64,000 bases of DNA from a virus, in the IMG/VR virus record IMGVR_UViG_3300046660_000403, positions 12,832-76,831 of that record; one strand, given 5' to 3'. The first letter of the stretch is position 1. The number at the start of each line of letters is the position of its first letter. Below are positions 12,657 to 28,475 of the stretch, one piece after another. The position numbers and the translations under genes are program-made. The notes beneath the pieces are model-generated. The model saw only the letters and a program-made list of their open reading frames with translations. It did no database searches and was not told the origin of the DNA.

Positions 12657-15600
12657 TTAGCCGCGTGTTTCGGCCAGTTCGCGGCTGACCGTCGCCTTGA
12701 GCGCCACCGGCGCGCTCTTCTGGGTCCGGTTCGCCGCGTCCTGGCGCATCGACCGCACCCGTTTCAGCACGCCCGGCATGCTGACCTTGACGGGCGCCTC
12801 CGGGTTCTTCGCGTTCCAGTCGTCGCGCCAGTCACGCGCGGCCTGCACCATGCCCGCATCGTTCTGGGCGATGCCCTGCGCCCAGTGCTCGGCGATTTCC
12901 GCCTGGCGCATGCGCGTCTGCGCCAGCATGTTGAGCGCTTGCCCCTTGGCATCCTGAATATCGGCCGTGCTGTTGGGCTGGAAGCCGATGATCTTCATGA
13001 TGCCCTCGGTGGTGCTGGTGTCGTTGACGCGGTAGCCGCGGGCGTCGTTGTAGCTGCCGCTGGCCAGCATGTCGGCGCCCTTGATGACGTTGCGCACGGA
13101 CGCCGGCGACACATCGAGCGCCGCGCCGGCGATATCGCCACCGAGCAGCTTGCCAGCGCCGGAGAACGCGCGCGCCGCCAAGTCACCAGCCGGGCCTGCC
13201 AGCTCGCCCAGATCGCGCGTGTAGCTCTCCTTCTTCTGCAACAGGCCGGTACCGGGAATCAGGTTACCCATGCCGAAGCGGCCGGCCACGTCCACCGGCA
13301 TGCCTGGCAGGCTCGAAATGCCCTTCAAGGCAAAGTCGGCGCCGCCTTGGCCCAGCACGTTCGTCAGGAAGGCCTGCTTGGCGCGCTTGGTGGCGAAGTT
13401 GTAACCCAGGCGTTGCATAATGCCGTCCAGCGCATCCTCCAGATCCTGCTCGAACGGCAGGCCGTCGGCGCCGGACATCAGGAACAGCACGGCCACCATG
13501 TACAGCGCGGCGCGGCGACCGGCCGCACGCTCCTTGGAGCCTGGTTCGCCAGCCATGGCCATGCGCGTGAGCAGCTCCAGATAGCCGATCGAATACTGCT
13601 TGAACGTCAGCAGCAGCGAACCGATGGTGCCACGCGCCCAGCGCGGCTTGTTGCCTGAGTTGTAGGTGCCCTGCGTTTGCGAAACCGCCTCCTGGGCGAA
13701 CTTGGCCGGGTTGCCCATGCCCTGCGCGATGGCAGTGCGGTAGGCCGCGATGAAGGTGATGCGGCGGTTGGCCAACTCGGCCATGGCGAACAGCTTGCCC
13801 CAGCCCAGCGAGACCTTGGCCATGGCGTTGTTCAGGTGCGCGCGGGTGTTCCCGGCCAGCGTGCCGTCGCCGGTACGCAGCGAGCCCTTGCCCGACGCCT
13901 GCGCCTGCAGGTAATGCACCTCCTGTGGCGCCACGATGCCCTCGTCCTCGGCCCACTTGAGCGCCGCGTCCAGATCCGCATCGCCAGTGCTGTCCTTACC
14001 GGCCAGTTTCACCGCGTCGGCCAGCGCCTTACCGGCCTTGGCCAAGCCGCCCCACTGGCTCAGGTACGGCAGCGTCATGGTGAAGGGCTGCGTCAGGTTG
14101 ACCATGGCTGATGCGACCGAACCGCCCAGGAACTGCGCGAACATCAGCCCGCCCAGTTGGTGGCCGCCGCCCTCCGGGTTGCGGATGTGCTCGCGCAGCT
14201 GCATGGCCGCGTCCGTCAGTTCCCCCTCCTGCTTGGGGATGGCGGTGACGGCCTCGTCGATCTCGCCCAGGTGGGCGTTGCCGGCGGTCAGGCGGGCATT
14301 GCTGTAGATGAAACCGGCCAGCACGCGCCCCGCATCCTCCGAGAAACCGGCGATGCCCTTGCGCTGGATCATGCGCTTCATGGCGCTGCGGTTGTTCTTG
14401 GCCAGCTTCAGATACGCCTGGTAGACTTCGGTGCTGGCGGCATCGGCCTGGCTGTCCAGGCCCACCATGGAGCCGAACAGTTCGATCGTCTCGGGCGATA
14501 CGCCGGCGAACAGTTTATAGGCGTCCTCCGACACCGTGCCCTGTGTCACCAGGGCGCCGGCGTGCGCCTCGCGCATGTCGCGCGCCATCTTCGCGGCCTC
14601 GTGCTGCGACTCGAACATGCCGAAATACACCTGTTCTTCGCCGTCCTGCACGTAGACCGTGTACTTGCCGAAGCGCGACAGCGGCGCGTAGCCGCGATCC
14701 ATCAAGCCTTGTCCCTTGTCGGCCAGGTTCATGATCTGGCTGGCCGTGTCGAGGTGCATGTCGGTCTGCTCCGGATGCAGCTTGGCCAGCGCGATGAAGT
14801 GGTCGCGCAGCAGGTTCGCCGCCTGTGCCAGGCTTGGCTCGGCCACGGCCTGCTCTTGCAGGCTCTTGGCGTCCTTGCCGCCCAGTTTCACCATTTCGCT
14901 GATGGTAAGATTGGTCAGGCTCTTGTCGAGCGCGGCGCGGAACTCGCGGTACAGCGCGATCTGCGCATCGGAGAGGCTGAACTTGTCGCGCAGCTCGGCA
15001 TCGCTCCACACCACGCCTCCCTGCAGCTGCGTGGCCGTGTAGCGACTGTTGATGCTCGCATCGTAGATGCCCAATGGGCTGGCCAGCCACGCCTGGTGCT
15101 GCTGGTGGTCGATGATGCCCTTGGCCAGCAGGATGCGCGCCTTGTCGGCAGTGCTCATCTGCTCGGCCTGCGCCTCCAGATCGGCCATGCTGATCGGCGC
15201 GCCGTTGGCATCGCGCGCCCAGCTCAGCGTGCCCTCGAAGATCGGCGCGGCGATCGCCTTGCTGTCCTCGGCGGTCAACGGCTTCTTGCGGTTCTTGCCG
15301 ATGATGTCGGCGATGTTCTCCAGCTTGGGCAGCAGCGTGGGGGCCATGTCGGCCGCCACCACCGCATAGCGCGACACGTCGCCCAGGAAGCGCTGCACAG
15401 CCTCGTAGACCGGTGCGAAAATCGGGCGGCGCTTGGCCAGGTTGTCCATGGTGCCCAGCGTCTTGTGCCACCAGTTGAGCTTGCCGGAGCTGTTGAACAG
15501 ATCGCCCAGGCGGTAGCCGGCCGGCAGGCGCAGATCCTCGATGCTGTTGGCCGCGCCCGCCAGGCGCTCGCCCAGGCCGGTGCGGCTGTATGCGGCCGCA

Positions 15601-18600
15601 TCACCCGCCTCGTTGACCAGCGTATGCACGGTCGGGCTATGGGCGAGGAAGTCCGTGCCCCACGTCGCGCCGTTCACGCGCGCGGTCTGGGCGTCAGCCG
15701 AAACCACGTCCGTGATCACGCCCGCCTCCACCCACGGCGCGAACGCGTCAACGTCGGCGCCTTCGGGCAGCGCCAGGAAGCGGTGTCCGCCGCTGCCGGT
15801 CTCGCGCACCATGCGGCGCAGCACGCCCTTGCCCTTGGCCAAGCCGCGTTTGCTGGTGTCGGTCAGCGCGCCCATCGGCACGTCCACCAGCAGCTGTACG
15901 GCGCCGTGAATGTCGGTCAGCACCAGCGCCGCGTGCCCGGCCGGGATTTGCAAAGCCTTGGCCAGCTGCGCCACATAGCCCGGTCCCTTGATGGCCACGC
16001 CCAGCAGTTGGTGCTCCAGCTCGGGCGCGCCGGTGAAATCGACGCCGTTCAATTCCGGCGCGGCCACCAGATCATGCGCGCCGGCGGCGTCGATGATGGC
16101 GTATTCATTGTGATCGATGACGACGTGCCCGCGCATGCCGGATACGGCAGCGGCGGTGCCGGTGGTCAGGTCGACGTCAGCGTCGGATGGCGTGGCGCGG
16201 CCCGACGGGTGGTTATGCAGCAGGTAGTAGCCATCGGCGCCGAAGCGGGCCTTGTCGGCCGCCACTTGCGCGTTCAGGTTGTTCGGCGTGCCCACCGATG
16301 CCGGCAGGCGCGAGGTGTAGCCGGCCTCGCCGACGATCTGGTCGCCAGCGGTGTAGAGCACGCGGAAGGTCTCGAAACGGGGATCGCGGTAAACCTGCGC
16401 CAGGGCGGCCAGGTCGGCCGGCGTGTGGACTACTTGCCCGACAAGCTCGTTGGGCTGTCCGGCAACGAACCCGGCGAGCAACCGGCTACCGAGTACGGTA
16501 GCTGCGCCTCGACCAGCTGGATTGCCTTCGCCGATACGATCAACGCCGAGCCGTCGGGAAAGTGCTTCGACGGCAGCGCGTCCGGTTCGCAGTTGGGCGT
16601 CGGTACTGCCTGGGCGGGTGTCGGTGTGTTCATAGGCGTCATTATAACCGGACGGTCCGGGCTCATGCAGCGTGCGCGGGGCGCTGCCCTGCCCTTGCGC
16701 CGCGGCGTGCTCGGCCCAGGTATCGACCAAGATGGCGCGCACCGCTTCCACGTCGCGCACCAGGTTGGCGGCGTCCCAGCGCGACCCGCGCAGCGCGCCG
16801 ATCAGCTTGGCCGCCACTTCCATGAATTTATAGGCCACCTGGCGGAACAGGGAACGGTCGGCCTTGGCCAGGTCGGACCAGAACACCGGTTCGAGCCACA
16901 TGGCGCCGTTGATGTCGGCGATCACCTCGGCCTCGGCCTGCTCCATGGGCACGTCCTGCAAGCCGGCGGCGACGTACTCGCGCAGCTGGCGATCGGCCAC
17001 CACGCCATCCTTCAGGTGGGCGCGGATGCGCTCGCGCAGCTTGGCCCCGAGTGCCGGGTTCGATTGCTCCAGGGCGTGCAGCGTCTCGTGGCCGGCGATG
17101 GCCAGCACGGGATTGTGCAGGCTTTCCGCCAGGTAGGCGGTGCCGCGATAGGCCACACCCTCGAAGTCGCCATTGGCGGAGACGAAATTGACGTCGATGC
17201 CCAGCGCCTTGCCGGCCTGGCGCGCCAGCGCGAAGCCGGCATTGGGCGCCGTGCGCAGCGCGCGCACCGGCGCCATGCCTTCCTTGGCCAGCACGCGGTT
17301 CAGCTGTTCGGTGGTCTTCTTCGCTGCCAGCAGCTCGGCGCCGGTCAGCACCAGGGGCGCCGCGGTGCCCGCGTCATGTCCGGCAGGAACGGGCGGCAGG
17401 AAGGCGCGCGCCTCATCGCGGAAGTATTCGGCGTCGCGGCTGTACAGCACGCCCGCCAGCGGCGTGCTTACACGTTGTAAGAGCCGGTCTGCAACGTGAT
17501 CCAGTACGTCTCGCCCGCCGTCGCGTCCTTCTTCGCGTAAAACGGCTGCGACAAGTGCCGCTCTCTTAAGATCAGACACCCCAATCGGAGGCGTATACGC
17601 TCCTCGGTGGGATGGAAAGAGTGCGTCATAAGCCCGGCGAAGCGATCCTGCAGCAGCTGCAAAATCCGCGTCTGTGAAAGGTACTGCATCCACTCGTGCG
17701 AGCTGCCCTTCTGCTTCATCAGGGCCAGCAGCGCCTCGTCCGGCAGTGCTTCGATCTCCTCCTGATCCCAGTCCATCCGCATCAGCTTGTTCTCCTGCAG
17801 CGGATTGGTCAGCCAATAGTGCGCCGGAAGATGCCCGAACGGGTGCGGCGTCGCGTTCAAAGCGGGCACGGGAGAAGTTGTAATGGACATCGGCGATCTC
17901 AGGGAAGACATGCAGGATGTTAGTGTAGGACGAAAGCAGCAGCTCGCGCAAGTTGTGCGCGTCGTCACCGGTGCGCCAGGCGACCGGGCGCACCGGCACG
18001 CCGGTGGCCGTTTGGATCGCTTCCACCTGGCGCGCGTGCGGCGCCAGGTGGGCGGTGGTGCCGTGGCGCAGCGCCGACGAGATCATCTGCTCGGTGCGGC
18101 GGTACAGCGCCTTGTCGGACAGCCCTTGCGGGTCGCCGATGAATACCTGCTTCGTGTTGTGCGCGAAAGTGGCCACCGCCTGGTAGACCTGGGCGCCCAG
18201 CTTGCCCTCCTTCCAGTTGGAGATATCGAGCCAGACTTCCTTGTTCTTGTTGTTTTTGTACACCCAGGCCAGCTCGCCGTCGGGAGACGTAATCTGCCAG
18301 ACGCGGTCCACCGGCGTGGCGGCGTCCTCTTCCTCACCCTGGCTGTAGAACTCGTCCACGGTCATGCTCGGCCCCACTTCGGCCAGCACACCGGCCAGCG
18401 TCTTGGCTTCGCTACCAGGCAGGCGGAATGCGTCGTCATCGCTGGCCAGCTGCGAGAAGATATTGACCAGCTGATCGTCCGTGTCGATGCGCGCACGGCT
18501 GAATTGCGCCTCCGCCGGCGCCTGGCGCATGTAGCTGCCGTCCGCGCGGCGCAGCGGGTTGCTGCGCGCGACAATGGCGCGGGCGGGCGTGGAGGGGCCG

Positions 18601-21600
18601 CTCGACAGTTCGCGGATCACGGTTTCCAGACGCGCGTGCTTGGCATCCAGCTCGCCCTGCTGGGCGAACGGGCCACCCTGGCGCGCGCGCAGATCCGGCA
18701 GCGAAGCCTCGGCGGCGGCCAGGCGGCGCGTAAAGTTGCCGATCGCCGAGGTCAGTCCGGATGGGTTGAGCGTCTTTTCCAGATCCTCCACGGCCGTGCG
18801 CATGGCCGACGTGGTGTACTCCGGGTTTTCGCGCCAATTGGTGTCACCGGTGGCCAGCGTGGAGCCATCCCAGCGCAGCACCGCCAGCGAGGTCCAGTAG
18901 CCGGCATTGCTGTCGTGCTCCATGGTCGCCTGCAGCGGCAAGCCGCGGAACTGGCCGATATCGACCGTTTTCGCCGCGTTCTCGCCCAGTTCGCCCGATA
19001 CCTCGGCGGCAATCTCGGCGATGGCGCGCGCGGCGTCGGTGCGCGCGCCGAGATCCTGCCCGTTCACCGTCATGTGGAACGGCTGCTGGTCACCCAGGGC
19101 CGCACCCACGGCCGCCATGGCGCCATCGAGCGAGGCCAGGCGGCGGCCGTTGACCTTGACCGATACCTTGGCCTTGTCGTCGCCACCCTGCTGGGCGGTG
19201 ACGGCTTCCATCACGGCGCGGCGCGCGGCGGCGCCGTCGTTGAAGTGCTCGCCCTCCACGCTCACGCTGCGCGCCGACACGGCCTGCTCCTGGGCCGACA
19301 GGCCCGCGTGCACGTCGGCCAGGTCGGATTCAGCCATCTTGATGCGCGCCGGCAGTTTGGCGACGCTGCTTTCGGCGTCCTCGATCTGGCTGGTGATGCC
19401 CCACTGTTTGCGGGCGTGCTGACGCTTGAGCAGCTCCAGCTTGTCGATTTCCGAGACCAGCTTGACGCGCTCCAGCAGCAGCGGGTCGCCGGAAGCCAGC
19501 GCGGCCAGTTCGGCCATGCTGACCGATTCCTCGTCCTCGAAGTCCATCGAGAACGCGCCGTCGTACTTGCGGATGGCGTTGATGGTTTTCAGCTTGGACG
19601 AGTTCAAGGCCCACATCTTCGCGTCGATGGTGCGCTCGGTCGCGTAGGCCAGGATTTCCAGCTCGAAGGCGTCGATGCCGTACTTGGCCAGCAGCTTGTT
19701 GCCCTGGCGGACGCCGCGGCCTTCACGCTGCTCGATGTCGGACGGCTTCCACGTCACGTCGGCGTGGTGGACGGCCACGATGCGCTGCTGCACGTTGGTG
19801 CCGGCGCCCATGCGTGGCGTCGAGCCGAGCAACACGCGCACGGTGCCGTCGTTGACGGCATCGAACAGCGCTTGCTTCTGGGCGTCGGTGTTCGCCTCCT
19901 GAACGAAGCGGATCTCGGCTGCCGGGATGCCGCGCGCAATCAGATTGTCCTTGATCTGCTGGTAGGCATTCCAGCCGCCGGCCTGGGCATTGCGCAGTTC
20001 CTCCATTTCGTTCGGGTCGAAGCGCTCCAGCTTCTCGCCGGCGGCGCGCATGGCGCCCTCGTTCTGGTCCTTCAAGGCCTGGCGCTGCGCGGCCAGCAGC
20101 GCGTCGTACTCTTTGAGCACGGCGTCGTCGCCCTTGGCCTTGGGCACGGAGCGGTCGAGGAAAATGAGCTGCGTACCGCGATCGGCATGCCACTTGTCGT
20201 AGATGCGCTTGACGTTGTCAGCGATCACGTCCAGCTTGCCGCCCTCTTCGCGGCTGGTGGAATGCGGGTTGGCCGCGCGCACGTCCAGCGAGACCTTGCG
20301 GGCGCGGTCCATCAGGCGCAGGCGCGCCTTGTTGCGCTCGTACGGGTCCACGATGTTCGGCAGGCCGTCGAAGCCTTCCAGCACCTCATCGAGCAAGTTG
20401 ATCTGCGCCTTGGTTGGCGCCATCACCACCGATTGGCGGTCACCGCCAGCTACGCGCGGGATCGGAAAGGCCTCGCCGCCGTTGTCCTCGGCATAGGCGC
20501 GCTTGATATCGTCGTTGTCCACGGAGTCGGTGAACGAGTAGTACAGGTCCATCAGCGAGCGCATGTTCGACCACGTGCGGCCCAGGCGATTGACCTCCTT
20601 CAGGCGGCCGGTCTCGGTCGGCTCCCAGCCGGCGTCGGTGCTGACGAACTGGGCGCGCCAGGCGTCGAAGTGCTCCAGGCCCAGCTCCTTGAGTTCGTCG
20701 GCGGCCAGGTAGCGCATCATGTTGTACATTTCCACGGCCGAATTGGAGATCGGCGTGCCGGTCAGGAACGTGACGGTGCCGGTTGGCGACTCGCGCAGCA
20801 CGCGCACCTTGTTGTACAGGTCGAAGGCCTTTTGCGAGCCGGTCTTGTTGCCCATGCCCTTCACGCCGGTCAGGCGCGAGCTGTAGAACAGGTTTTTGAA
20901 TTCGTGCGCCTCATCCACCGTCAAGTCATCGATGCCCATCTGCTCGAACGTCAGCAGGCGGTCCTTGTTCTTGTCGCCCTTGACCTTCTCCATGCGCGCG
21001 GTCAGCTTGTCCACCAGGCGCTCGGCCTCCTTCACGCCGAACGGCTTGCGGAAACCGGCTTGGCCGCTGTCCTCGGCCTCCTCTTCGGCCTCGGCCACGG
21101 CCGCGACGGCCGCGTCGAGTTCCTGCTGCAGGAAGCGCTCCTCGGTTTCGGGCGCGATGCCGATGAAGCCGAACGACGAGTGCGGCAGGATCACGATGTC
21201 ATAGTCGCCGGTGGCGATCTTGGCGAACAGCTGGCGGCGGCGGCTCTTTTCAAAGTCCTTCTTGCCGGCCGCCAGCACCTTGGCGGCCGGGTATAGGCGG
21301 TACACGTCGGAGGTGAACTGCTCCACCATATGATTCGGCACCACCATCGTCGGCTTCTTCGACAGGCCCATGCGGCGCCGTTCCATCGCCCGCGCGATCG
21401 CCGTGTAGGTCTTGCCAGCCCCGACCGTATGGTCGACCAGCATGAAACGCTCGCTGATGCCGCGCCAGATCGTGTTCTTCTGGTGGCGGCGCATGGCGAT
21501 CACGGCGTCCGGCACTTTCCCGGGCAGGAACAGGTGCGAGCCATCGTGCTGGCGCATCACGCGGGTGTTGAACTTCTCGTTGAAGATCTCCACCAGCTGG

Positions 21601-24600
21601 TTGCGGCGCGCGCCATCCTTGTACACCCAGTCGGAAAACTCGGTGCTGATCGCCTTGGCCTTGAGCAGCGCCAGGGCGGTTTTCTCCTGGTCCACGTGCG
21701 CGCCGCCGTCCTTGTCGTAGTACACCACCTTGATCGCGCTGTTGTTGAGCAGCGCGGCGATCAGCTCGACGGAGGTGTAGCCGGGCGAGCCCCACTCTTC
21801 CTCGCTGGCGCGGTTGGTCGCAGCGCCGGTGACGCTGTAGCTGTTGGTGACGGCGGAATACGCCACGCGCGCGATGGCGGTGCCGGCGATGTGCTGCACG
21901 AAGTCGGCGTACACCGACGGCGGCACCCACGACGAGCCCAGCAAGGCGGTCACATTTTCGGCGCCCCACGGCTCGGGCTGCACTTCTTCCAGGGCGTTGA
22001 TGTTCTGCACCAGGCGTGCGGCGCGCGCGGCGTTGAGCTTGCGCTTGACCTGTCCGGACAGGTAGCTGTTGCGGGTCTCCCACAGGCCCGACTCAGGATC
22101 CTTGAACAGCAGCGGCTTGTCGGCCGCCGCCAGTTCCGCCTCGACGGCGGCCACGTCCTTGCCCAGCAGGGCGGCAATGCGCTCCAGATCCACGCGGCCG
22201 GCTTCGGCCATGTTGATGGCCACCGCGTCGGCCAGGGAGTCGGCCGTGGTTGGTGCCTCGTACGGCACGATCACGCGTTTCGACAGGATCGGCGCCGGCT
22301 CGGCGGCCGCCGGGCGCACCTTCTCGCCGATGCGCGCGGCGCGCGCGGCCGTGATCGCTGGACGGTAGCCCGATTCGAGCGCCTGCACCAGCGCGCCGTC
22401 CGGCATGTTCGTCACCAGGGACGAGTTGGCCGGTTCGGAGACCAGGCCGTGCTCTTTCACGAATGCCTGGTAGGCCGCCGCCAGACTGGCGCGGTTGGCC
22501 TCGATCGCGGCCGTCTTGGCGTCCTCCGCCTCCAGCGACAGCTGCTCCTTGAGCAGATCGCGCAGCGCGACGAGCTGGCGCAGGCGCTCGTAGCGGGTTT
22601 TCCCCAGTAGCATGGCCGATGGAATATCCGCCTCGCTGGTGAACACCTTGCGGTCGTACACGTTCAGGTTGGTGGTTTTGCCGTTCTTGACCTGTTTGAC
22701 CGGCTTGCCGTGCTCGTCCATCTGCGCCTCGATGGTGTACCACTTGCCGTCGCGGTCCATATATAACGCGTCGGACCAGGGCGATTCCGGCGCCAGGATG
22801 CGGCGCGTCAGTTCAAAGGCGCCTTCGGGCGTCTCGCGCTCAACGACTTGGTGCAGTACGCCGCCGGCCTCCAGCTTGATCGAGCCGTTTTCGTGGCCGG
22901 CCAGGGCGATGCGCAGCGCATCGCTCATGTCCTTGTGGCGCGCGATGGCCGCGCTGATGCCGTCCGGCGTCTGCGTCATGACCGACTGGGGCAGGTGCTT
23001 GATGGCGCCGGCCAAGCGTTGCGCCAGGCTGTCCGGATCGTCCAGGCGCACCGTGATGTCGTTTCCATAGGCCATACTGCCCGAGCGCTCCAGCACGCCC
23101 ATGACCATATGCGGGTGCTTGGCGAAATAGGTGTTCACGCGCATCGTGTCGCCGCCCAGCGGGTCGGCCAGCTCGGTGGTCTGCACCCATTCAGGCACTT
23201 GCGCGGCGAGCGCCTGGCGCTCGTCCTCGGCTTGGCGGCTGGTTTCCGGCTTCTGGGCCGCCGCGGCGAATGCCGCCTCCATGGTCGCTTCCTCGGCTGG
23301 CGTGAGGCGCTGCAGGAATACCATATCGGTGACCACGGAGGTGCGCGCGTTTTCCTTGAATGCCGTGTCCGGCAGGCGGATGGCGCCCAGCAGGCGCGCC
23401 TTCTTGGCCAGTTGCACGCGCGAGGATTTATCCAGCTTGTCCAGCAGGTAGCGCGAGACCACCTGCACCTGCAGGCCGCCCGGCTTCAATGCGTCCAGCG
23501 AGGCCAGGAAGAACTGGTTGTGGATCGAATGGCCGTTGATCTCGGGCTTGAACTGGAAGCGCAGCGACTGGTCGCCGAATGGCGGATTGCCGATCGCCAG
23601 GTCGAATGCGCCATCGGCCAGCGGCACGCTCTGGAAGCCGCTGTTGAGCACGGTTTCGTTCGGGTACAGCAGCGCGGCGATGCGCGCGGTCAGGTTGTCG
23701 TACTCGACGCCGATGAACTTGGTGCGTGCGCCTACGTCTTCCGGCATCAGGCCGATGAAGTTGCCGGCACCCATGGACGACTCCAGCGCCATGCCGCCCT
23801 GATAGCCCAGGCGGCGCGCGGCGGCCCACATGCTTTGCACGACAGTTTGCGATGTGTAATGCGAGTCCAGCGTGGAGCGGCGCGCCAGCGCGTACTCTTT
23901 CGGGCTCAGCAGCTCGGCCAGGTCGGCGCCGCGCTGGCGCCATGCGTCCTTGAACTGGCCCGTTTCAGGCGACGGGAAGGCGTTGGCCAAGCCGCCCCAG
24001 CCCACGTAACGGGCCATGATGGCCTGTTCCTGGGGCGTGGCGTGGCGATTTTCGGCCTCGACCGCGCGCATGGTGCGGATCGCGGACAGGTTGTCGTTGA
24101 ATTTCTGGACTTCGCCGCCCTGCCCCAGGCGCACGTCGTCGGTGATGTGGAAATTGAAGGCGGGCACCGATGGCGCCGCCGCAGGGGCGATCGCGCTTAC
24201 GTCGGATTCGGCTCGCGCATCTTGTCCTGGTACGCGTTCTCCATCTCGGCCAGCTCCTGGGCTTCCCAGTCCGTCTCTGGCGCTGGTTCCGCCGTCAGCA
24301 GGATATACCGGCTCAAGGCCACTTCTTCCGCTTCGTGCTGCTGATACCCGCTTTGCTGCAGGTTGGCGATCAGCCGATGCGCCGCCACTGCGGCCGCCTC
24401 CGTCGCTTCGCTCCACTCGCCCTGCGCTTTCAGCACTTCCGTCTTGTGCGGCAGCCAGGTCTCCCAGTGATGGCGCGCCTTCGCCGCCAGCGTTGCTATG
24501 TCCATGATCTTCCTTCTCTTTCGTATTGGGGGTCAGTGTATCGGATTTTTCGCGCGATGCAACATCGGCAACGATGCCGTGCAGCTTGGCGGCCAGCTGG

Positions 24601-27600
24601 CCAGCGCTCATGGCCGGGTCTTGCCACAGGTTTTGGCCCGTGCGGGATGGGTTGCCCGGCTCGGTGACGCGCGCCACGACGGCCACGCCGCTGGCGGTGA
24701 TGGGCAGCATCGGGCCGCGGACGGCGCTGCCGCTCACGTCGATATGGATGCCCTTGCCCAGGCTCTCGTTGACCATGGACAGCGTGACCTCGCCCGACAC
24801 GGCCGGACCTGCCTCATTGACGGAAACAGCCTTGCCGGGCTTGCCGTTGCGCTGGGGGCCAGGGGCATAGCCCTGCGAAGCCAGCACGCCGGCCACGTCT
24901 TTCAAGTAACGCTGACCATCGGACAGGAAGGCGGCTTTGACGCCGCCGGCAGGCAGATCGCCACCGCGCTCGACCGGGAATTCGTCGGTGTGCTCGTAAC
25001 CGTCGATGAATTCCACTCCGTAATCGCCGCGCAGCGTGGCCTCGCCGAGCGCCGCTTTGCCCTTCTTCGGCGATTTCGCGGCGCTCGGTGCAGCCGCAGC
25101 TGATGCTGCCGGGCCCGGGTCGGCTTTCGCGACTGCTTGCAAATTGTCGCGCAGGGCAGCGACTTCTTTCTTGTATTCCTTGTTGCCTTCGTTGAACAGT
25201 TTGACGATGCGCACAGTGTCGGCTGCCAGATGCGCCAGCGGCGCCAGGTCGGGATGGGTGCGGCGCATGGCCTCTGCCAGGTCGAACAGGGCATTTTCGG
25301 CGTGCGCCACCTGCTCCCAGGTCGTGATGCTCCCCAGGCTGGCCAGCACTTGCGCGGCCGTATTGCCGTGCTGGGCGGCCGCCGGGGCGGCGGGCGCTTT
25401 TTCCTGCACTGGCGTGGCGGCGCTCTCCAGCGAGCGGGCGGCGATCTCCTTGCCGATCTTGGCCACGCGCGGGCTGTCGGCCAACAGCGTTTTTGCCTCC
25501 AGCAGCTCGGCATCGCTCATGTCTTTGACGGTGCGGCGGTTGAGCGCCTGTCGGCGCGGGGCTGGCGCGGGTTCGGCTTGGCTGGCGTCCTGCGGCACGC
25601 TGTCCGCTGGAGCATGGGCAGGGCGAGCTGTGTCAGCTTCACGCGGGGTAGCGTCAGCGACGGCGCCGCTCGTCTGGTCAGTGTCCGTCGTCGTGGCCGG
25701 GCTGCTCTGTGCTTGGCTCGGCACGGAACTCGCCTTCATATGTGCCGCGCGGACCACGCCGTACTGGGAGCCGACCGGGAAGCGCTTGCGCGTCTGCCCA
25801 TTCGCCAGCCAGTCTTTGAAGCCGTTAACGTTGGTCTCGATGATAGTGTCGCCACCGCTCCAACCTGGCGCATAGTTGCCATGGTAGGCAGCGCTGGCCG
25901 CGTCGAGCGAGTCGAAGCCCAGCATGACCTTGTGCTCATCGAACTTGCGACTGTCCGGATGCACCTGATTGACCACGAATACCTTGTCGCTGTCCGGCTG
26001 CGGTCCGATGAACGTGTCGATATGGTCCTTGTCGGCGCCCACCGTGCCGCGGATATAGCCATAGTGGTGCGCCATGGTGTTTTCCCATGGCGTGCCGTCC
26101 TTGTCCTCGCCCTTGCGGGTCGATCCGGCTGGATTTTCAATCGACAGGTCCATGCCGTGCAGGCGCACGCGGCCCAGCTTGTAGTTGCTGGCCTCCTTTT
26201 GCGCCTGGGTAGGCTCGGGCAATGCGTTGTGCGGCGAAGTGGCAGCCTCGTGGGCCGCCAGGTCCAGAGCGTTTGGGATCGCCTCGGATTCGGGCACGGT
26301 GTTCGCAGCTGGCGCGACGATAGGTTCGTTTTCCGGGGCTTTTTCCCGTGAAACCGCATCATTTTCCCGCGAAACTGCATTATTTTGACCATTTTCCGCA
26401 ACAACGGGCGCATTCTGCTGCCCCAGGGCGGCGATGGCCGCCGTGTAGTGCGCCTTTTGTGCGGTGCTCAGTCGGAAGATTTTCGACGAGCCGGGCTTGT
26501 GCAGCACGGTGCCATTGGCCGTTTTCAGGCGCATGCCGGAGGCGATCGCGGCATCGACGGCGGCCGTATTGGTGCCGGCCGGCGCGGGCACCGCCTGCTT
26601 GCGCTCGGGGACCGCATCGACCAGCTCATTGGGCAGGCTGGGCACGGGTTCGGCGGCGGCCGCGAACTCGGCGTGGTCCTCGTCGGTCACTTCGGGATTG
26701 ACGTAGCCACCGCGCTTGAGCGCGGCCTGGAAGGCGGCAGGCTTGTTGGCCACGGCCGGGTCGGCAATGATCTGCTCGCGCAGCGCTGCGCGGTTTGCCT
26801 GCGCGCGCTGTTGGCGCTCATGTTCGACAATGGCGTTGGTGGTGGCGATCTGCTCCTGTTCGCGCTGGGCGGCGGCTTCGCGCGCCTGGCGCGCATCCTC
26901 GTCCAGCAAGGCCTGGATCTGCGCTTCCTCCTGCGCGCTGCGGGACTTGGCCGCCGCGGCGATGGCTGGAGCGGTCTTGGCGTCGTGCGCCGCCTGCTCC
27001 TGGGCCAGCAAGGCCTGGTACTCGGCCTGCTGGTCCTGCGGAATGGCCACGCGCGCAGCGCGCGCCTGTTTGAGTGCGTCGTATTCGGATTTTTCCTCGG
27101 CGGTGAGTGGGCGGCCATCCACGGCAGGCACCTTCACCTTGTTGCCGGTGGCATCTAGCGCCGATTGTGCCAGCTGGCCACGGCCGATGGCCACCAGCTG
27201 GTCCATGCGCGCGTCGATCTCGCGCAGGGACGGCAGCGCGTCGCCAGCTGCCGGAGCTGCAGGCGCGGGAGTGCCTTGCGGCGCCGTGGCGTTGGCGGTG
27301 GCTGCGGCCGCCGTGGCGGCTGCGGCGGCTTGGCCTGCATTGGCGGCCTGCGACAGCGGACCGGAATTGGGCAGGACAACGGGGGATGGCGGTGCTGCGT
27401 CGTGGCGCTGGGCGCCGCCCAGGCCTGCGCCCATGACACCGCCCGTCACCAGGCCGGTACCGGCGGCGTTGGCCACGCCTTTCATGCGGTCCTGCTCGCC
27501 TTGGGCGATGTTGGTGAAATACTGTTCCTGCGCCGACTGCGGCATTTCTTCCAGCACGCCCTCGCTCAGGAACTCCTTGCCCACGCGCGTGGCCAGCTTG

Positions 27601-28475
27601 CCGCGCACGCCTGCCGAGTGCGCGCCGGTGGCGATCGAGGTGGCCGAGTCGCCCAACAGTTTGCCGGCGCCCAGGCCGATCGCGGCGGTTCCCACGCCAG
27701 CCGCCAGCGAGGGCAGCGCATAATCGCTGTACTCGCGCCCGGCTGCCTGCGCGTCGTCGGCGATCTGACCAGCGCTTTGCGCACCTTCGGTGGCCGCGCC
27801 CAGCGCCACCAGCTTACCGCCGGCAGCTTCCACCGCCGCACTGGCGGCTTGCCCGCCTGCCTTGGTGGCCAGCGCCGCCTTGGTGGCCTGCGCTGCGCCG
27901 CGTCCGGCGGCCAGCTCGGCGGCGCTTGCCGCCGCCCCTTCTGCCGTTGCCAGCGCCGCCTTGGTGGCCACGCCGCGCGCCACAGCGCCGGTCACGCCCA
28001 TGCCGGCGAGCATGCCAGGCGCGGACTGCGCCACGCTGCCCAGAATGCTGCGCGGGTTCTGTACCGATGCCACTACGGAGTCGGTAAAGCCGTCGGCGTT
28101 CGCCACCTTGTCATCGGACGCCTTCTGGCTGTCGCTCAGGTACTCGCCCAGGATCTCATTGGTGCGTTTCGGATCGTAGCCCAGTGCACGCGCGCCCTTG
28201 CCCACCAGCCCGCCGGTGGCCAAGCTGCCCAGACCGACAATCGACGAGCCCACATCAACCACGCCCTGCGCGGCCTTGATGCCCACGTCGCCGACGGTGC
28301 GCAGCACACCGGCCTGTTGCGGGGCGGGCTGCGGCGCCTGGTAGCCCAGCTTGGCCTCCAGCGCGGCCTTGTCCATGGTCGGGTAGTACAGCTGGTGCAG
28401 TGCATCGACGAAACTTGCGTCATCGAGGCCGGCCAGGTTGGGGAGATTCTTGCGTGCTTCGGCTAAACCAGACAT
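12657..28475 (-). CDS. 5272-aa large polyvalent / DarB-like virion ejection protein: inorganic pyrophosphatase-like, N6-adenine methyltransferase, SNF2 helicase, GNAT-like, RadC/JAB and PLxRFG domains
   Basis: YGYIRGTVGADKDHID (~26050); ESSMGAGNF and NPPF (~23770, ~23580); GAGKT and DEAH (~21410, ~20905); HNHPSG..PSDAD (~16200); PLSRFG (~14670). Confidence 0.92.
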   Translation of the reverse strand: MSGLAEARKNLPNLAGLDDASFVDALHQLYYPTMDKAALEAKLGYQAPQPAPQQAGVLRTVGDVGIKAAQGVVDVGSSIVGLGSLATGGLVGKGARALGYDPKRTNEILGEYLSDSQKASDDKVANADGFTDSVVASVQNPRSILGSVAQSAPGMLAGMGVTGAVARGVATKAALATAEGAAASAAELAAGRGAAQATKAALATKAGGQAASAAVEAAGGKLVALGAATEGAQSAGQIADDAQAAGREYSDYALPSLAAGVGTAAIGLGAGKLLGDSATSIATGAHSAGVRGKLATRVGKEFLSEGVLEEMPQSAQEQYFTNIAQGEQDRMKGVANAAGTGLVTGGVMGAGLGGAQRHDAAPPSPVVLPNSGPLSQAANAGQAAAAATAAAATANATAPQGTPAPAAPAAGDALPSLREIDARMDQLVAIGRGQLAQSALDATGNKVKVPAVDGRPLTAEEKSEYDALKQARAARVAIPQDQQAEYQALLAQEQAAHDAKTAPAIAAAAKSRSAQEEAQIQALLDEDARQAREAAAQREQEQIATTNAIVEHERQQRAQANRAALREQIIADPAVANKPAAFQAALKRGGYVNPEVTDEDHAEFAAAAEPVPSLPNELVDAVPERKQAVPAPAGTNTAAVDAAIASGMRLKTANGTVLHKPGSSKIFRLSTAQKAHYTAAIAALGQQNAPVVAENGQNNAVSRENDAVSREKAPENEPIVAPAANTVPESEAIPNALDLAAHEAATSPHNALPEPTQAQKEASNYKLGRVRLHGMDLSIENPAGSTRKGEDKDGTPWENTMAHHYGYIRGTVGADKDHIDTFIGPQPDSDKVFVVNQVHPDSRKFDEHKVMLGFDSLDAASAAYHGNYAPGWSGGDTIIETNVNGFKDWLANGQTRKRFPVGSQYGVVRAAHMKASSVPSQAQSSPATTTDTDQTSGAVADATPREADTARPAHAPADSVPQDASQAEPAPAPRRQALNRRTVKDMSDAELLEAKTLLADSPRVAKIGKEIAARSLESAATPVQEKAPAAPAAAQHGNTAAQVLASLGSITTWEQVAHAENALFDLAEAMRRTHPDLAPLAHLAADTVRIVKLFNEGNKEYKKEVAALRDNLQAVAKADPGPAASAAAAPSAAKSPKKGKAALGEATLRGDYGVEFIDGYEHTDEFPVERGGDLPAGGVKAAFLSDGQRYLKDVAGVLASQGYAPGPQRNGKPGKAVSVNEAGPAVSGEVTLSMVNESLGKGIHIDVSGSAVRGPMLPITASGVAVVARVTEPGNPSRTGQNLWQDPAMSAGQLAAKLHGIVADVASREKSDTLTPNTKEKEDHGHSNAGGEGAPSLGDLAAAQDGSAESAGRVERSDGGGRSGGASADRQPAAKRVSAARSGRSGLEPVYPADGGTSARDGLGSPGAGRDGERVPGQDARAESDVSAIAPAAAPSVPAFNFHITDDVRLGQGGEVQKFNDNLSAIRTMRAVEAENRHATPQEQAIMARYVGWGGLANAFPSPETGQFKDAWRQRGADLAELLSPKEYALARRSTLDSHYTSQTVVQSMWAAARRLGYQGGMALESSMGAGNFIGLMPEDVGARTKFIGVEYDNLTARIAALLYPNETVLNSGFQSVPLADGAFDLAIGNPPFGDQSLRFQFKPEINGHSIHNQFFLASLDALKPGGLQVQVVSRYLLDKLDKSSRVQLAKKARLLGAIRLPDTAFKENARTSVVTDMVFLQRLTPAEEATMEAAFAAAAQKPETSRQAEDERQALAAQVPEWVQTTELADPLGGDTMRVNTYFAKHPHMVMGVLERSGSMAYGNDITVRLDDPDSLAQRLAGAIKHLPQSVMTQTPDGISAAIARHKDMSDALRIALAGHENGSIKLEAGGVLHQVVERETPEGAFELTRRILAPESPWSDALYMDRDGKWYTIEAQMDEHGKPVKQVKNGKTTNLNVYDRKVFTSEADIPSAMLLGKTRYERLRQLVALRDLLKEQLSLEAEDAKTAAIEANRASLAAAYQAFVKEHGLVSEPANSSLVTNMPDGALVQALESGYRPAITAARAARIGEKVRPAAAEPAPILSKRVIVPYEAPTTADSLADAVAINMAEAGRVDLERIAALLGKDVAAVEAELAAADKPLLFKDPESGLWETRNSYLSGQVKRKLNAARAARLVQNINALEEVQPEPWGAENVTALLGSSWVPPSVYADFVQHIAGTAIARVAYSAVTNSYSVTGAATNRASEEEWGSPGYTSVELIAALLNNSAIKVVYYDKDGGAHVDQEKTALALLKAKAISTEFSDWVYKDGARRNQLVEIFNEKFNTRVMRQHDGSHLFLPGKVPDAVIAMRRHQKNTIWRGISERFMLVDHTVGAGKTYTAIARAMERRRMGLSKKPTMVVPNHMVEQFTSDVYRLYPAAKVLAAGKKDFEKSRRRQLFAKIATGDYDIVILPHSSFGFIGIAPETEERFLQQELDAAVAAVAEAEEEAEDSGQAGFRKPFGVKEAERLVDKLTARMEKVKGDKNKDRLLTFEQMGIDDLTVDEAHEFKNLFYSSRLTGVKGMGNKTGSQKAFDLYNKVRVLRESPTGTVTFLTGTPISNSAVEMYNMMRYLAADELKELGLEHFDAWRAQFVSTDAGWEPTETGRLKEVNRLGRTWSNMRSLMDLYYSFTDSVDNDDIKRAYAEDNGGEAFPIPRVAGGDRQSVVMAPTKAQINLLDEVLEGFDGLPNIVDPYERNKARLRLMDRARKVSLDVRAANPHSTSREEGGKLDVIADNVKRIYDKWHADRGTQLIFLDRSVPKAKGDDAVLKEYDALLAAQRQALKDQNEGAMRAAGEKLERFDPNEMEELRNAQAGGWNAYQQIKDNLIARGIPAAEIRFVQEANTDAQKQALFDAVNDGTVRVLLGSTPRMGAGTNVQQRIVAVHHADVTWKPSDIEQREGRGVRQGNKLLAKYGIDAFELEILAYATERTIDAKMWALNSSKLKTINAIRKYDGAFSMDFEDEESVSMAELAALASGDPLLLERVKLVSEIDKLELLKRQHARKQWGITSQIEDAESSVAKLPARIKMAESDLADVHAGLSAQEQAVSARSVSVEGEHFNDGAAARRAVMEAVTAQQGGDDKAKVSVKVNGRRLASLDGAMAAVGAALGDQQPFHMTVNGQDLGARTDAARAIAEIAAEVSGELGENAAKTVDIGQFRGLPLQATMEHDSNAGYWTSLAVLRWDGSTLATGDTNWRENPEYTTSAMRTAVEDLEKTLNPSGLTSAIGNFTRRLAAAEASLPDLRARQGGPFAQQGELDAKHARLETVIRELSSGPSTPARAIVARSNPLRRADGSYMRQAPAEAQFSRARIDTDDQLVNIFSQLASDDDAFRLPGSEAKTLAGVLAEVGPSMTVDEFYSQGEEEDAATPVDRVWQITSPDGELAWVYKNNKNKEVWLDISNWKEGKLGAQVYQAVATFAHNTKQVFIGDPQGLSDKALYRRTEQMISSALRHGTTAHLAPHARQVEAIQTATGVPVRPVAWRTGDDAHNLRELLLSSYTNILHVFPEIADVHYNFSRARFERDAAPVRASSGALLADQSAAGEQADADGLGSGGDRSTAGRGAAGPDEAEGQLARVDAVPFTDADFAAAAGSLRRAYDALFPSHRGAYTPPIGVSDLKRAALVAAVLREEGRDGGRDVLDHVADRLLQRVSTPLAGVLYSRDAEYFRDEARAFLPPVPAGHDAGTAAPLVLTGAELLAAKKTTEQLNRVLAKEGMAPVRALRTAPNAGFALARQAGKALGIDVNFVSANGDFEGVAYRGTAYLAESLHNPVLAIAGHETLHALEQSNPALGAKLRERIRAHLKDGVVADRQLREYVAAGLQDVPMEQAEAEVIADINGAMWLEPVFWSDLAKADRSLFRQVAYKFMEVAAKLIGALRGSRWDAANLVRDVEAVRAILVDTWAEHAAAQGQGSAPRTLHEPGPSGYNDAYEHTDTRPGSTDAQLRTGRAAVEALSRRLGVDRIGEGNPAGRGAATVLGSRLLAGFVAGQPNELVGQVVHTPADLAALAQVYRDPRFETFRVLYTAGDQIVGEAGYTSRLPASVGTPNNLNAQVAADKARFGADGYYLLHNHPSGRATPSDADVDLTTGTAAAVSGMRGHVVIDHNEYAIIDAAGAHDLVAAPELNGVDFTGAPELEHQLLGVAIKGPGYVAQLAKALQIPAGHAALVLTDIHGAVQLLVDVPMGALTDTSKRGLAKGKGVLRRMVRETGSGGHRFLALPEGADVDAFAPWVEAGVITDVVSADAQTARVNGATWGTDFLAHSPTVHTLVNEAGDAAAYSRTGLGERLAGAANSIEDLRLPAGYRLGDLFNSSGKLNWWHKTLGTMDNLAKRRPIFAPVYEAVQRFLGDVSRYAVVAADMAPTLLPKLENIADIIGKNRKKPLTAEDSKAIAAPIFEGTLSWARDANGAPISMADLEAQAEQMSTADKARILLAKGIIDHQQHQAWLASPLGIYDASINSRYTATQLQGGVVWSDAELRDKFSLSDAQIALYREFRAALDKSLTNLTISEMVKLGGKDAKSLQEQAVAEPSLAQAANLLRDHFIALAKLHPEQTDMHLDTASQIMNLADKGQGLMDRGYAPLSRFGKYTVYVQDGEEQVYFGMFESQHEAAKMARDMREAHAGALVTQGTVSEDAYKLFAGVSPETIELFGSMVGLDSQADAASTEVYQAYLKLAKNNRSAMKRMIQRKGIAGFSEDAGRVLAGFIYSNARLTAGNAHLGEIDEAVTAIPKQEGELTDAAMQLREHIRNPEGGGHQLGGLMFAQFLGGSVASAMVNLTQPFTMTLPYLSQWGGLAKAGKALADAVKLAGKDSTGDADLDAALKWAEDEGIVAPQEVHYLQAQASGKGSLRTGDGTLAGNTRAHLNNAMAKVSLGWGKLFAMAELANRRITFIAAYRTAIAQGMGNPAKFAQEAVSQTQGTYNSGNKPRWARGTIGSLLLTFKQYSIGYLELLTRMAMAGEPGSKERAAGRRAALYMVAVLFLMSGADGLPFEQDLEDALDGIMQRLGYNFATKRAKQAFLTNVLGQGGADFALKGISSLPGMPVDVAGRFGMGNLIPGTGLLQKKESYTRDLGELAGPAGDLAARAFSGAGKLLGGDIAGAALDVSPASVRNVIKGADMLASGSYNDARGYRVNDTSTTEGIMKIIGFQPNSTADIQDAKGQALNMLAQTRMRQAEIAEHWAQGIAQNDAGMVQAARDWRDDWNAKNPEAPVKVSMPGVLKRVRSMRQDAANRTQKSAPVALKATVSRELAETRG
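16430..16633 (-). CDS. Candidate nested +1-frame leaderless gene (67 aa) inside the polyvalent gene
   Basis: TATAAT (16641-16646) 7 nt before the ATG; local codon bias changes. Confidence 0.5.
   Translation of the reverse strand: MNTPTPAQAVPTPNCEPDALPSKHFPDGSALIVSAKAIQLVEAQLPYSVAGCSPGSLPDSPTSLSGK
17468..17782 (-). CDS. Nested +1-frame gene (104 aa; alternative start 17911) inside the polyvalent gene
   Basis: AGGAG RBS; TTGCGC-18-TACACT promoter at 17922-17951; globular composition. Confidence 0.65.
   Translation of the reverse strand: MRMDWDQEEIEALPDEALLALMKQKGSSHEWMQYLSQTRILQLLQDRFAGLMTHSFHPTEERIRLRLGCLILRERHLSQPFYAKKDATAGETYWITLQTGSYNV
24197..24505 (-). CDS. Nested +1-frame gene (102 aa, helical, TnpV/DUF1896-reminiscent) inside the polyvalent gene
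   Basis: AAGGAAG RBS; TTGCAT-16-TACACT promoter at 24535-24562; protein-like composition. Confidence 0.75.
   Translation of the reverse strand: MDIATLAAKARHHWETWLPHKTEVLKAQGEWSEATEAAAVAAHRLIANLQQSGYQQHEAEEVALSRYILLTAEPAPETDWEAQELAEMENAYQDKMREPNPT

Follow-up and report, generated by a model that had tools for sequence, protein, structure and literature searches.

A candidate overlapping gene nested behind the LPD37 domain of a giant polyvalent phage protein

The minus strand of a 64,000-nucleotide (nt) stretch of viral DNA (positions 12,832 to 76,831 of IMG/VR record IMGVR_UViG_3300046660_000403; hereafter the window) encodes a giant polyvalent, DarB-like protein, one of whose domains is LPD37. 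Directly behind the LPD37 segment and wholly within this giant gene (hereafter the host gene) lies a second open reading frame (ORF), shifted into the +1 frame. Its composition, its variation and its distribution across related loci suggest this nested ORF to be, very probably, a translated overlapping gene; it looks like an old, real gene, as opposed to a chance open frame. As an overall explanation, dual coding appears likely: a giant protein accompanied by an independent +1 protein, which would be initiated internally and work with LPD37. Feature coordinates are compiled in Table 1.

Conservation of a +1 frame behind LPD37

By codon position, the GC content of the giant gene amounts to 0.69/0.48/0.84. 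Between approximately nt 17900 and 17470, GC at host position 3 (GC3) drops to 0.30–0.48, while that at host position 1, equivalent to nested position 3, climbs to 0.73–0.88; over this interval, it is the +1 frame that bears the composition typical of coding sequence. The same GC switch, the open +1 frame and its stop recur in the gene for a 5,555-amino-acid (aa) homologue on a Massilia violaceinigra plasmid (77% DNA identity in this region), and GC-rich loci in general repeat the GC3 switch (e.g., 0.87, 0.44, 0.88). Variation between relatives follows the same boundaries. Pairwise differences at host third positions reached 0.45–0.5 in the flanks, as compared to 0.19–0.30 in the overlap, determined for six and then for eight relatives with 61–72% protein identity. 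Likewise, the cultured Erwinia phages PEp14 and Pavtok differ in the flanks nearly exclusively at host position 3 (position 1: 0–0.1), whereas host position 1 is the most variable one in the overlap (0.36–0.40).

To map the nested ORF beyond close relatives, we used an LPD37 alignment to retrieve 135 LPD37 loci (55 from genomes, 80 viral) and searched them in all six frames with a hidden Markov model (HMM) of the nested family. A first pass returned 57 matches, and iteration raised this number to 119. None fell on the opposite strand, and all but two—found in the +2 frame—mapped to the +1 frame directly after LPD37. The host frame was open across the nested ORF in each of the 119 loci. Most of the 16 loci devoid of an HMM match were seen by eye to contain a +1 ORF bearing a related ...VGELLRE...YW... 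motif. The overlap is still present at ~31% LPD37 identity, and the nested gene accompanies LPD37 across giant proteins of numerous architectures. It is also retained by five stand-alone LPD37 genes (303–457 aa), in which the host stop lies 29–191 nt past the nested stop.

Measured from the C-terminus of the protein, the nested stop sits at a constant position in close and in many distant loci, and the host codon GTA behind it is rare (4.6% of the Val codons in the giant gene). At the other end, an earlier, sequence-only reading of this DNA had proposed a 104-aa product preceded by an AGGAG ribosome-binding site, or a 147-aa version starting from ATG 17911. The elements of the shorter form are present as described (AGGAG at 17796–17792, a 9-nt spacer, ATG 17782 and TAA at 17470–17468). 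ATG 17911 exists, too, but is not conserved among relatives and was ruled out as the start. In the window's clade, the ORF reaches further upstream than elsewhere, and we favor ATG 17890 as the start because the added segment (HPFGHLP...NPL.EN) is conserved and confidently modeled; ATG 17782, which aligns with the start region of shorter distant homologues, may serve as a second start. The host codon contributing to ATG 17890 is GAT, the less common of the Asp codons (25%). Among distant loci, an ATG near the start of the nested ORF was present in 81 of 101 (80%, versus 36% expected), accompanied by a Shine-Dalgarno (SD)-like motif in 37 of the 81. This ATG lies a median of six codons downstream of a +1-frame stop and, in 59 of 70 loci, still inside the LPD37 fold, a median of 34 nt before the fold's end. 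The resulting products have a median length of 91 aa.

Could the +1 ORF nevertheless be an untranslated by-product, its composition and low synonymous change arising from constraint on the host linker or on the nucleotides themselves, and its similarity between loci being a mere shadow of the host frame? GC-rich genomes often contain long +1 ORFs, and shadow matches do occur. As a control, HMM building was restricted to the eight close sequences. For the LPD37 core, 127 loci were found in the host frame, one in a virtual +1 frame and 14 in a virtual +2 frame. In the overlap, the distant loci found numbered 20 for the +1 frame, seven for the host frame and none for the +2 frame; the nested frame is therefore the better conserved frame here. 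The nested ORF also stays open in loci of low GC content, whose +1 ORFs have a median of ~15 codons, and represents the longest +1 ORF in 15 of 27 cases. The host frame's loss of its GC3 signature where the +1 frame has a normal one, the conserved positions of stop and ATG, and a predicted fold whose confidence (see below) a junk frame would rarely attain likewise argue for translation.

Some observations weigh against an independently translated gene. The host frame, too, is conserved in the overlap among distant giant proteins, and part of the +1 conservation may hence reflect mutual shadowing. A crude OLGenie-style count on the eight close sequences gave a weak dNN/dNS of 0.91 compared to 0.92–1.12 in controls, as an untranslated frame might; in this count, only dSN was clearly reduced (0.61 versus 0.88–0.93). 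Family-wide, merely ~45 C-terminal residues are well conserved (RL+ER.SS.PFYA...YW..L..S). As to initiation, the SD sequence ahead of ATG 17890 is poor, ATG 17782 is found in four of six close relatives and missing from the other two, and eight of the 101 distant loci lack all of ATG, GTG and TTG around the beginning of the ORF. With both sides considered, we regard an untranslated +1 ORF as very unlikely indeed. An embedded gene is expected to occupy a shifted frame that is kept open within the confines of a larger gene, as found in 119 of 135 loci; to possess a translation start of its own, for which AGGAG-9 nt-ATG 17782, ATG 17890 and the ATG excess in distant loci speak; and to bear selection beyond its host's shadow, as seen in the GC3 switch, the suppressed synonymous change of the host and the 20 versus seven loci detected by the HMMs.

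Table 1 Features of the giant gene region discussed in the text (window coordinates)
Feature	Position	Strand	Remarks
Nested overlapping gene (predicted), +1 frame	17468..17890	-	140 aa plus TAA; clade-conserved start ATG 17890
TAA stop of the nested gene	17468..17470	-	Made by host codons GTA-AGC
Alternative internal start (possible)	17780..17796	-	AGGAG, 9 nt, ATG 17782-17780; 104-aa form
Candidate internal promoter	17918..17947	-	TTGCGC 17947-17942, 18 nt, TACACT 17923-17918; inside LPD37 coding sequence
LPD37 domain, host frame	17841..18461	-	Pfam PF18853
Host-frame linker over the overlap	17471..17850	-	Low-complexity; rich in Ala, Gly, Asp and Arg
Host-frame YSR motif	17436..17444	-	Just past nested stop; matching FSR before LPD37, residue 3325
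Giant polyvalent (DarB-like) protein gene	12657..28475	-	5,272 aa; from ORF list and translation

Product of the nested ORF and routes to its expression

An AlphaFold2 model based on 13 sequences predicts the nested protein to form an all-helical domain of nine helices (predicted local distance difference test score, pLDDT, 88.2; predicted template modeling score, pTM, 0.81). An exhaustive HMMER search of 1.84 billion representative sequences with the +1 product returned six small proteins of 107–176 aa, which show 34–66% identity, terminate at a common C-terminal position and had been called on short metagenome contigs. Overall, homologues with this C-terminus range down to 33% identity. One cluster member (P0041, from metagenome contigs of up to 8,452 nt) is 241 aa long and starts in the LPD37 host frame before continuing in the nested frame, representing a frameshift variant, of either natural or assembly origin, from a close relative.

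The fold itself could not be matched to a described one. The best Foldseek hit to the nested model had an E-value of 2.3 in the PDB and of 1.2 in BFVD, the ESM Atlas yielded no usable match, and a wide VIA structural search peaked at Z 3.2, with a scatter of extracytoplasmic function (ECF) sigma-2 domains at Z 2.5–3.2 that we do not trust. Nor was there a match in Pfam, PHROGs, NCBIfam or PADLOC, with all 71 family members scanned against Pfam and PHROGs. A tblastn search of cultured phages found nothing with the window's nested protein; repeated with the PEp14 version, it found the Erwinia phages PEp14, Stean and Pavtok. In all three, one coding sequence (CDS) is annotated in this place and the nested gene is left unannotated.

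With respect to transcription, the sequence-only reading had noticed that the host codons for LLSSYTN spell a TACACT -10 box, and codons 17935–17915 indeed contain this hexamer. Together with an upstream element it forms a TTGCGN-18 nt-TACACT arrangement that is unchanged in eight of eight close but diverged relatives although its host codons are rare: TTG accounts for 7.6% of the codons for Leu and ACT for 4.3% of those for Thr. A scan of nt 17300–18300 for consensus promoters and terminators returned no site at threshold, and we consider the arrangement as suggestive only of a promoter.

The nested frame might alternatively be reached without a start codon, by a programmed +1 ribosomal frameshift at the end of LPD37; the outcome would be a truncated giant product ending in the helical domain rather than the product of an independent gene. 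Such a scenario would fit the window's own clade rather well, where conservation of the +1 frame (HPFGHLP...) sets in at ~nt 17845, just where the LPD37 fold ends (~17850), where 204 open codons precede the stop of the +1 frame, and where the SD sequence before ATG 17890 is weak. It fits the distant loci poorly. Their +1 frame is closed by the stop codon shortly upstream of the nested ATG, and since that ATG mostly lies inside the LPD37 fold, a shift would delete the last hairpin of the domain. Further arguments against frameshifting are the excess of ATG codons, many with an SD motif, the lack of a shared slippery motif in the codon alignment, and the fact that gene callers predicted the ORF as a separate one on short contigs. 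Frameshifting thus appears very unlikely, and internal initiation of an independent gene remains our preferred explanation.

The host frame across the overlap encodes a linker whose beginning is disordered where modeled (AlphaFold2 pLDDT < 50) and which turns conserved near its end (VDAVPFTDADF, GVSDLKRA, LLQRV).

LPD37, its resemblance to acetyltransferases and a possible partnership

The domain preceding the nested ORF is readily recognized as LPD37: the match to the Pfam profile scores 231–237 bits (gathering score 27 bits; E-value 1.4e-68 to 2.5e-70) and covers profile positions 2–225 of 243. In its AlphaFold2 model (pLDDT 85, pTM 0.80), two helices are followed by four strands, a helix, a strand, a helix, more helices and finally a hairpin, and the folded part stops at ...ARFERD, close to nt 17850. 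Invariant residues comprise G, G, D, G, R and G, and numerous polar residues are conserved (D, RR, E, SS, T, H, H, Q). Owing to this polar conservation, the sequence suggests an enzyme or a tight binding site.

The sequence-only reading had gone further, describing a domain akin to the GCN5-related N-acetyltransferases (GNATs) directly followed by a nested gene. A conserved nested ORF does follow a discrete domain, yet that domain is LPD37, and its identity as a GNAT could not be established. The segment singled out as resembling a GNAT acetyl-coenzyme A (CoA)-binding motif (VWLDISNWKEG...GDPQGLSDKA) is present at ~nt 18233–18110 and constitutes the LPD37 core, but the strict CoA motif is absent: no register of the loop between strand and helix, SNWKEGKLGAQ, fits the pyrophosphate-binding pattern Q/R-x-x-G-x-G/A, and only a G-x-x-G pattern is invariant in it. 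Profile similarity is lacking as well. No Pfam GNAT family matched the LPD37 region at E-values up to 1, an hhalign comparison of a 71-sequence LPD37 profile to nine genuine Acetyltransf_1 GNATs gave a probability of 0.3%, and a PDB sequence-profile search with LPD37 found no match.

Structure comparison hints at a faint resemblance in fold. Foldseek returned nothing below an E-value of 0.04 from the PDB and a few GNATs at 0.14 or higher. The VIA search placed ~15 GNAT or other acetyltransferase chains in the top 50, among them GNA1, RimL, NatD, YjdJ, Elp3 and HAT1, aligned to model residues ~33–175 with Z values of 4.6–5.7; AfGNA1, for example, reached Z 5.7 at a root-mean-square deviation of 4.3 Å over 104 residues. 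The top row was a radical SAM methyltransferase (Z 6.2), and all of these values lie below the noise guide of the method, whereby Z < 8 is common by chance. LPD37 and the GNAT superfamily may weakly resemble each other in the central sheet with its helices, and LPD37 has a glycine loop at the equivalent place; the two differ in the lack of profile similarity and of the strict CoA motif, with structural Z values in the noise range. In sum, a GNAT-like nature of LPD37 is weakly supported by the models. Separately, the automatic JGI name of a 5,833-aa homologue (P0009; loci L008/L069) contains the phrase 'ribosomal protein S18 acetylase RimI-like enzyme'. In the giant homologues, P0009 included, a crude GNAT HMM detected no GNAT domain anywhere.

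These data also bear on the full model put forward originally, in which LPD37 is an injected GNAT acetyltransferase toxin and the nested protein its antidote. The strict linkage of the nested gene to LPD37, the position of the giant gene among internal virion and ejection genes, the topology of the model core with its acetyltransferase matches, and an invariant G-x-x-G loop where GNATs bind the CoA pyrophosphate—with two conserved Arg opening the next helix—are all compatible with it. Given a methyltransferase as the best structural match, Z values that uniformly stay under the guide value, and the failure of hhalign, Pfam, the PDB profile search and the strict motif to indicate a GNAT, however, we deem the model unlikely.

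Under the dual-coding explanation, the giant polyvalent protein would be read straight through, and the ~420 nt after LPD37 would additionally encode a small helical +1 protein of 140 aa (from ATG 17890) or 104 aa (from ATG 17782), and of ~90 aa in distant relatives. Ribosomes would initiate internally at its own start codon and SD sequence, on either the long late mRNA or a message from the weak candidate promoter TTGCGC-18-TACACT. The product may then pair with LPD37, binding the domain so as to inhibit, guard or complete it, and the placement of its gene in the linker would keep domain and partner together as one cassette while polyvalent proteins shuffle their domains.

How plausible is such a partnership? 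Strict genetic linkage to one effector domain, as would be expected of an effector-inhibitor pair, was found by HMM in 119 of 135 loci and by eye in most of the others. Based on this linkage, the chances that the nested protein is a functional partner of LPD37—be it an inhibitor, an immunity factor or a subunit—seem about even. That it is specifically an immunity or inhibitor protein is a more tentative proposal, and equally doubtful, if conceivable, is an effector-guardian cassette in which the nested protein would be the inhibitor, immunity factor or obligatory subunit of an enzymatic LPD37 delivered with the phage DNA. A complex prediction for LPD37 and the nested protein scored 0.08 (mark, 0.32), which is evidence neither way.

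Small genes embedded in larger phage genes are well known, including Rz1 within Rz (the spanins of phage lambda), as well as E within D and B within A of phiX174. In the case of Rz/Rz1, both products are made, Rz1 being a lipoprotein, and the two proteins work together. Like Rz1, the nested ORF described here is small, in the +1 frame, wholly inside a larger phage gene on the same strand and equipped with its own start. Unlike in Rz1/Rz, the outer gene is a 15.8-kb multidomain one, and the inner one occupies an inter-domain linker and is tied to LPD37 across architectures; its product is predicted to be soluble and helical, not a lipoprotein. A second parallel is offered by polymorphic toxin systems, in which a variable effector domain always has a small cognate gene immediately behind it, the two being transferred jointly from one architecture to another. 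The nested ORF similarly always comes right after one domain. In those systems, however, the immunity gene lies beyond the toxin gene's stop codon, whereas the nested ORF here overprints a stretch within an ORF that continues.

Genome setting and further features of the giant gene

The virus record is complete (76,831 bp, with direct terminal repeats), and the sole sequencing run containing the window in full is a rhizosphere metagenome; no RNA run with this DNA was found. Along the 5,272-aa giant protein, Pfam and NCBIfam place an InPase domain, an N6-adenine methylase, an SNF2 helicase, LPD37, an HExxH peptidase motif, RadC/JAB and a PLxRFG 'tail-700' C-terminus, with NCBIfam NF032893 matching at an E-value of 1.7e-186. 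The genes upstream have PHROG matches to internal virion, DNA ejection and tail fibre proteins; in view of these neighbors, the giant protein is probably packaged and ejected. Polyvalent proteins of phages and conjugative elements, P1 DarB among them, were defined by Iyer, Burroughs, Anand, de Souza and Aravind in 2017 (PMC5512222), who list LPD1–40, and hence LPD37, as domains without known function. The giant protein unites several unrelated effector or enzyme domains in one phage polypeptide encoded beside virion genes, and resembles members of that class in its methylase-helicase dyad, InPase, RadC, peptidase and LPD domains as well as its virion-gene setting. The words 'overlapping' and 'frameshift' do not occur in the text of that study, that is, genes hidden inside such ORFs were not reported there.

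Other segments of the giant gene were inspected for overprinting. A second candidate is a +1-frame ORF on the minus strand at 24200–24532 (111 codons from stop to stop). Host GC3 is 0.34–0.52 over 24605–24126, and the ORF's own-frame GC of 0.67/0.44/0.79 is coding-like; its translation resembles an ordinary acidic helical protein. By composition it looks like a real gene; the Massilia plasmid homologue gave no tblastn match to it. A +1 ORF at 16433–16801 on the same strand is probably not a gene: its own-frame GC at position 2 is 0.70, its translation is rich in Pro, Ala, Ser and Arg, and the dip in host GC3 is mild (0.52–0.60). On the plus strand, antisense ORFs of 1,107 and 1,137 aa (14157–17480 and 17883–21296) run opposite the giant gene; such lengths are expected given the host GC3 of 0.84 and do not in themselves indicate genes.

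The motif [FY]SR occurs four times in the giant protein as opposed to 0.9 times expected, at nt 18503, 17876, 17444 and 15590 (residues 3325, 3534, 3678 and 4296, respectively), and many loci show a motif like [LIF][YF]SR past the nested stop. Such sites might mark boundaries between modules or be targets for processing by the built-in peptidase. In two contigs of Azoarcus/Zoogloeaceae metagenome-assembled genomes (loci L017 and L038), the host tail past the LYSR-like motif resembles an intein/Hint N-terminal block (...GDLQVGDLV... and ...GDIHVGDEV...) and ends within ~120–145 residues.

While embedded +1 genes as such are already known from phages, none coupled to a particular domain of polyvalent proteins seems to have been reported, considering that overlapping genes are not mentioned in PMC5512222 and that PEp14, Pavtok and Stean are annotated with a single CDS. 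The finding points to a protein family, hitherto unannotated and apparently new in its fold, in more than 100 phage and prophage genomes, cultured Erwinia phages included, and to an unusually old and widespread instance of dual coding in bacterial viruses. Few phage proteins are as large and as poorly understood as the polyvalent (DarB-like) ones, and the nested gene offers a handle on the role of LPD37. The inter-domain linkers of giant phage genes would be worth screening for overprinted genes, which standard gene callers suppress. If the cassette reading holds true, further linkers within polyvalent proteins may hide partner genes as well, the +1 ORF at 24200–24532 being one example.

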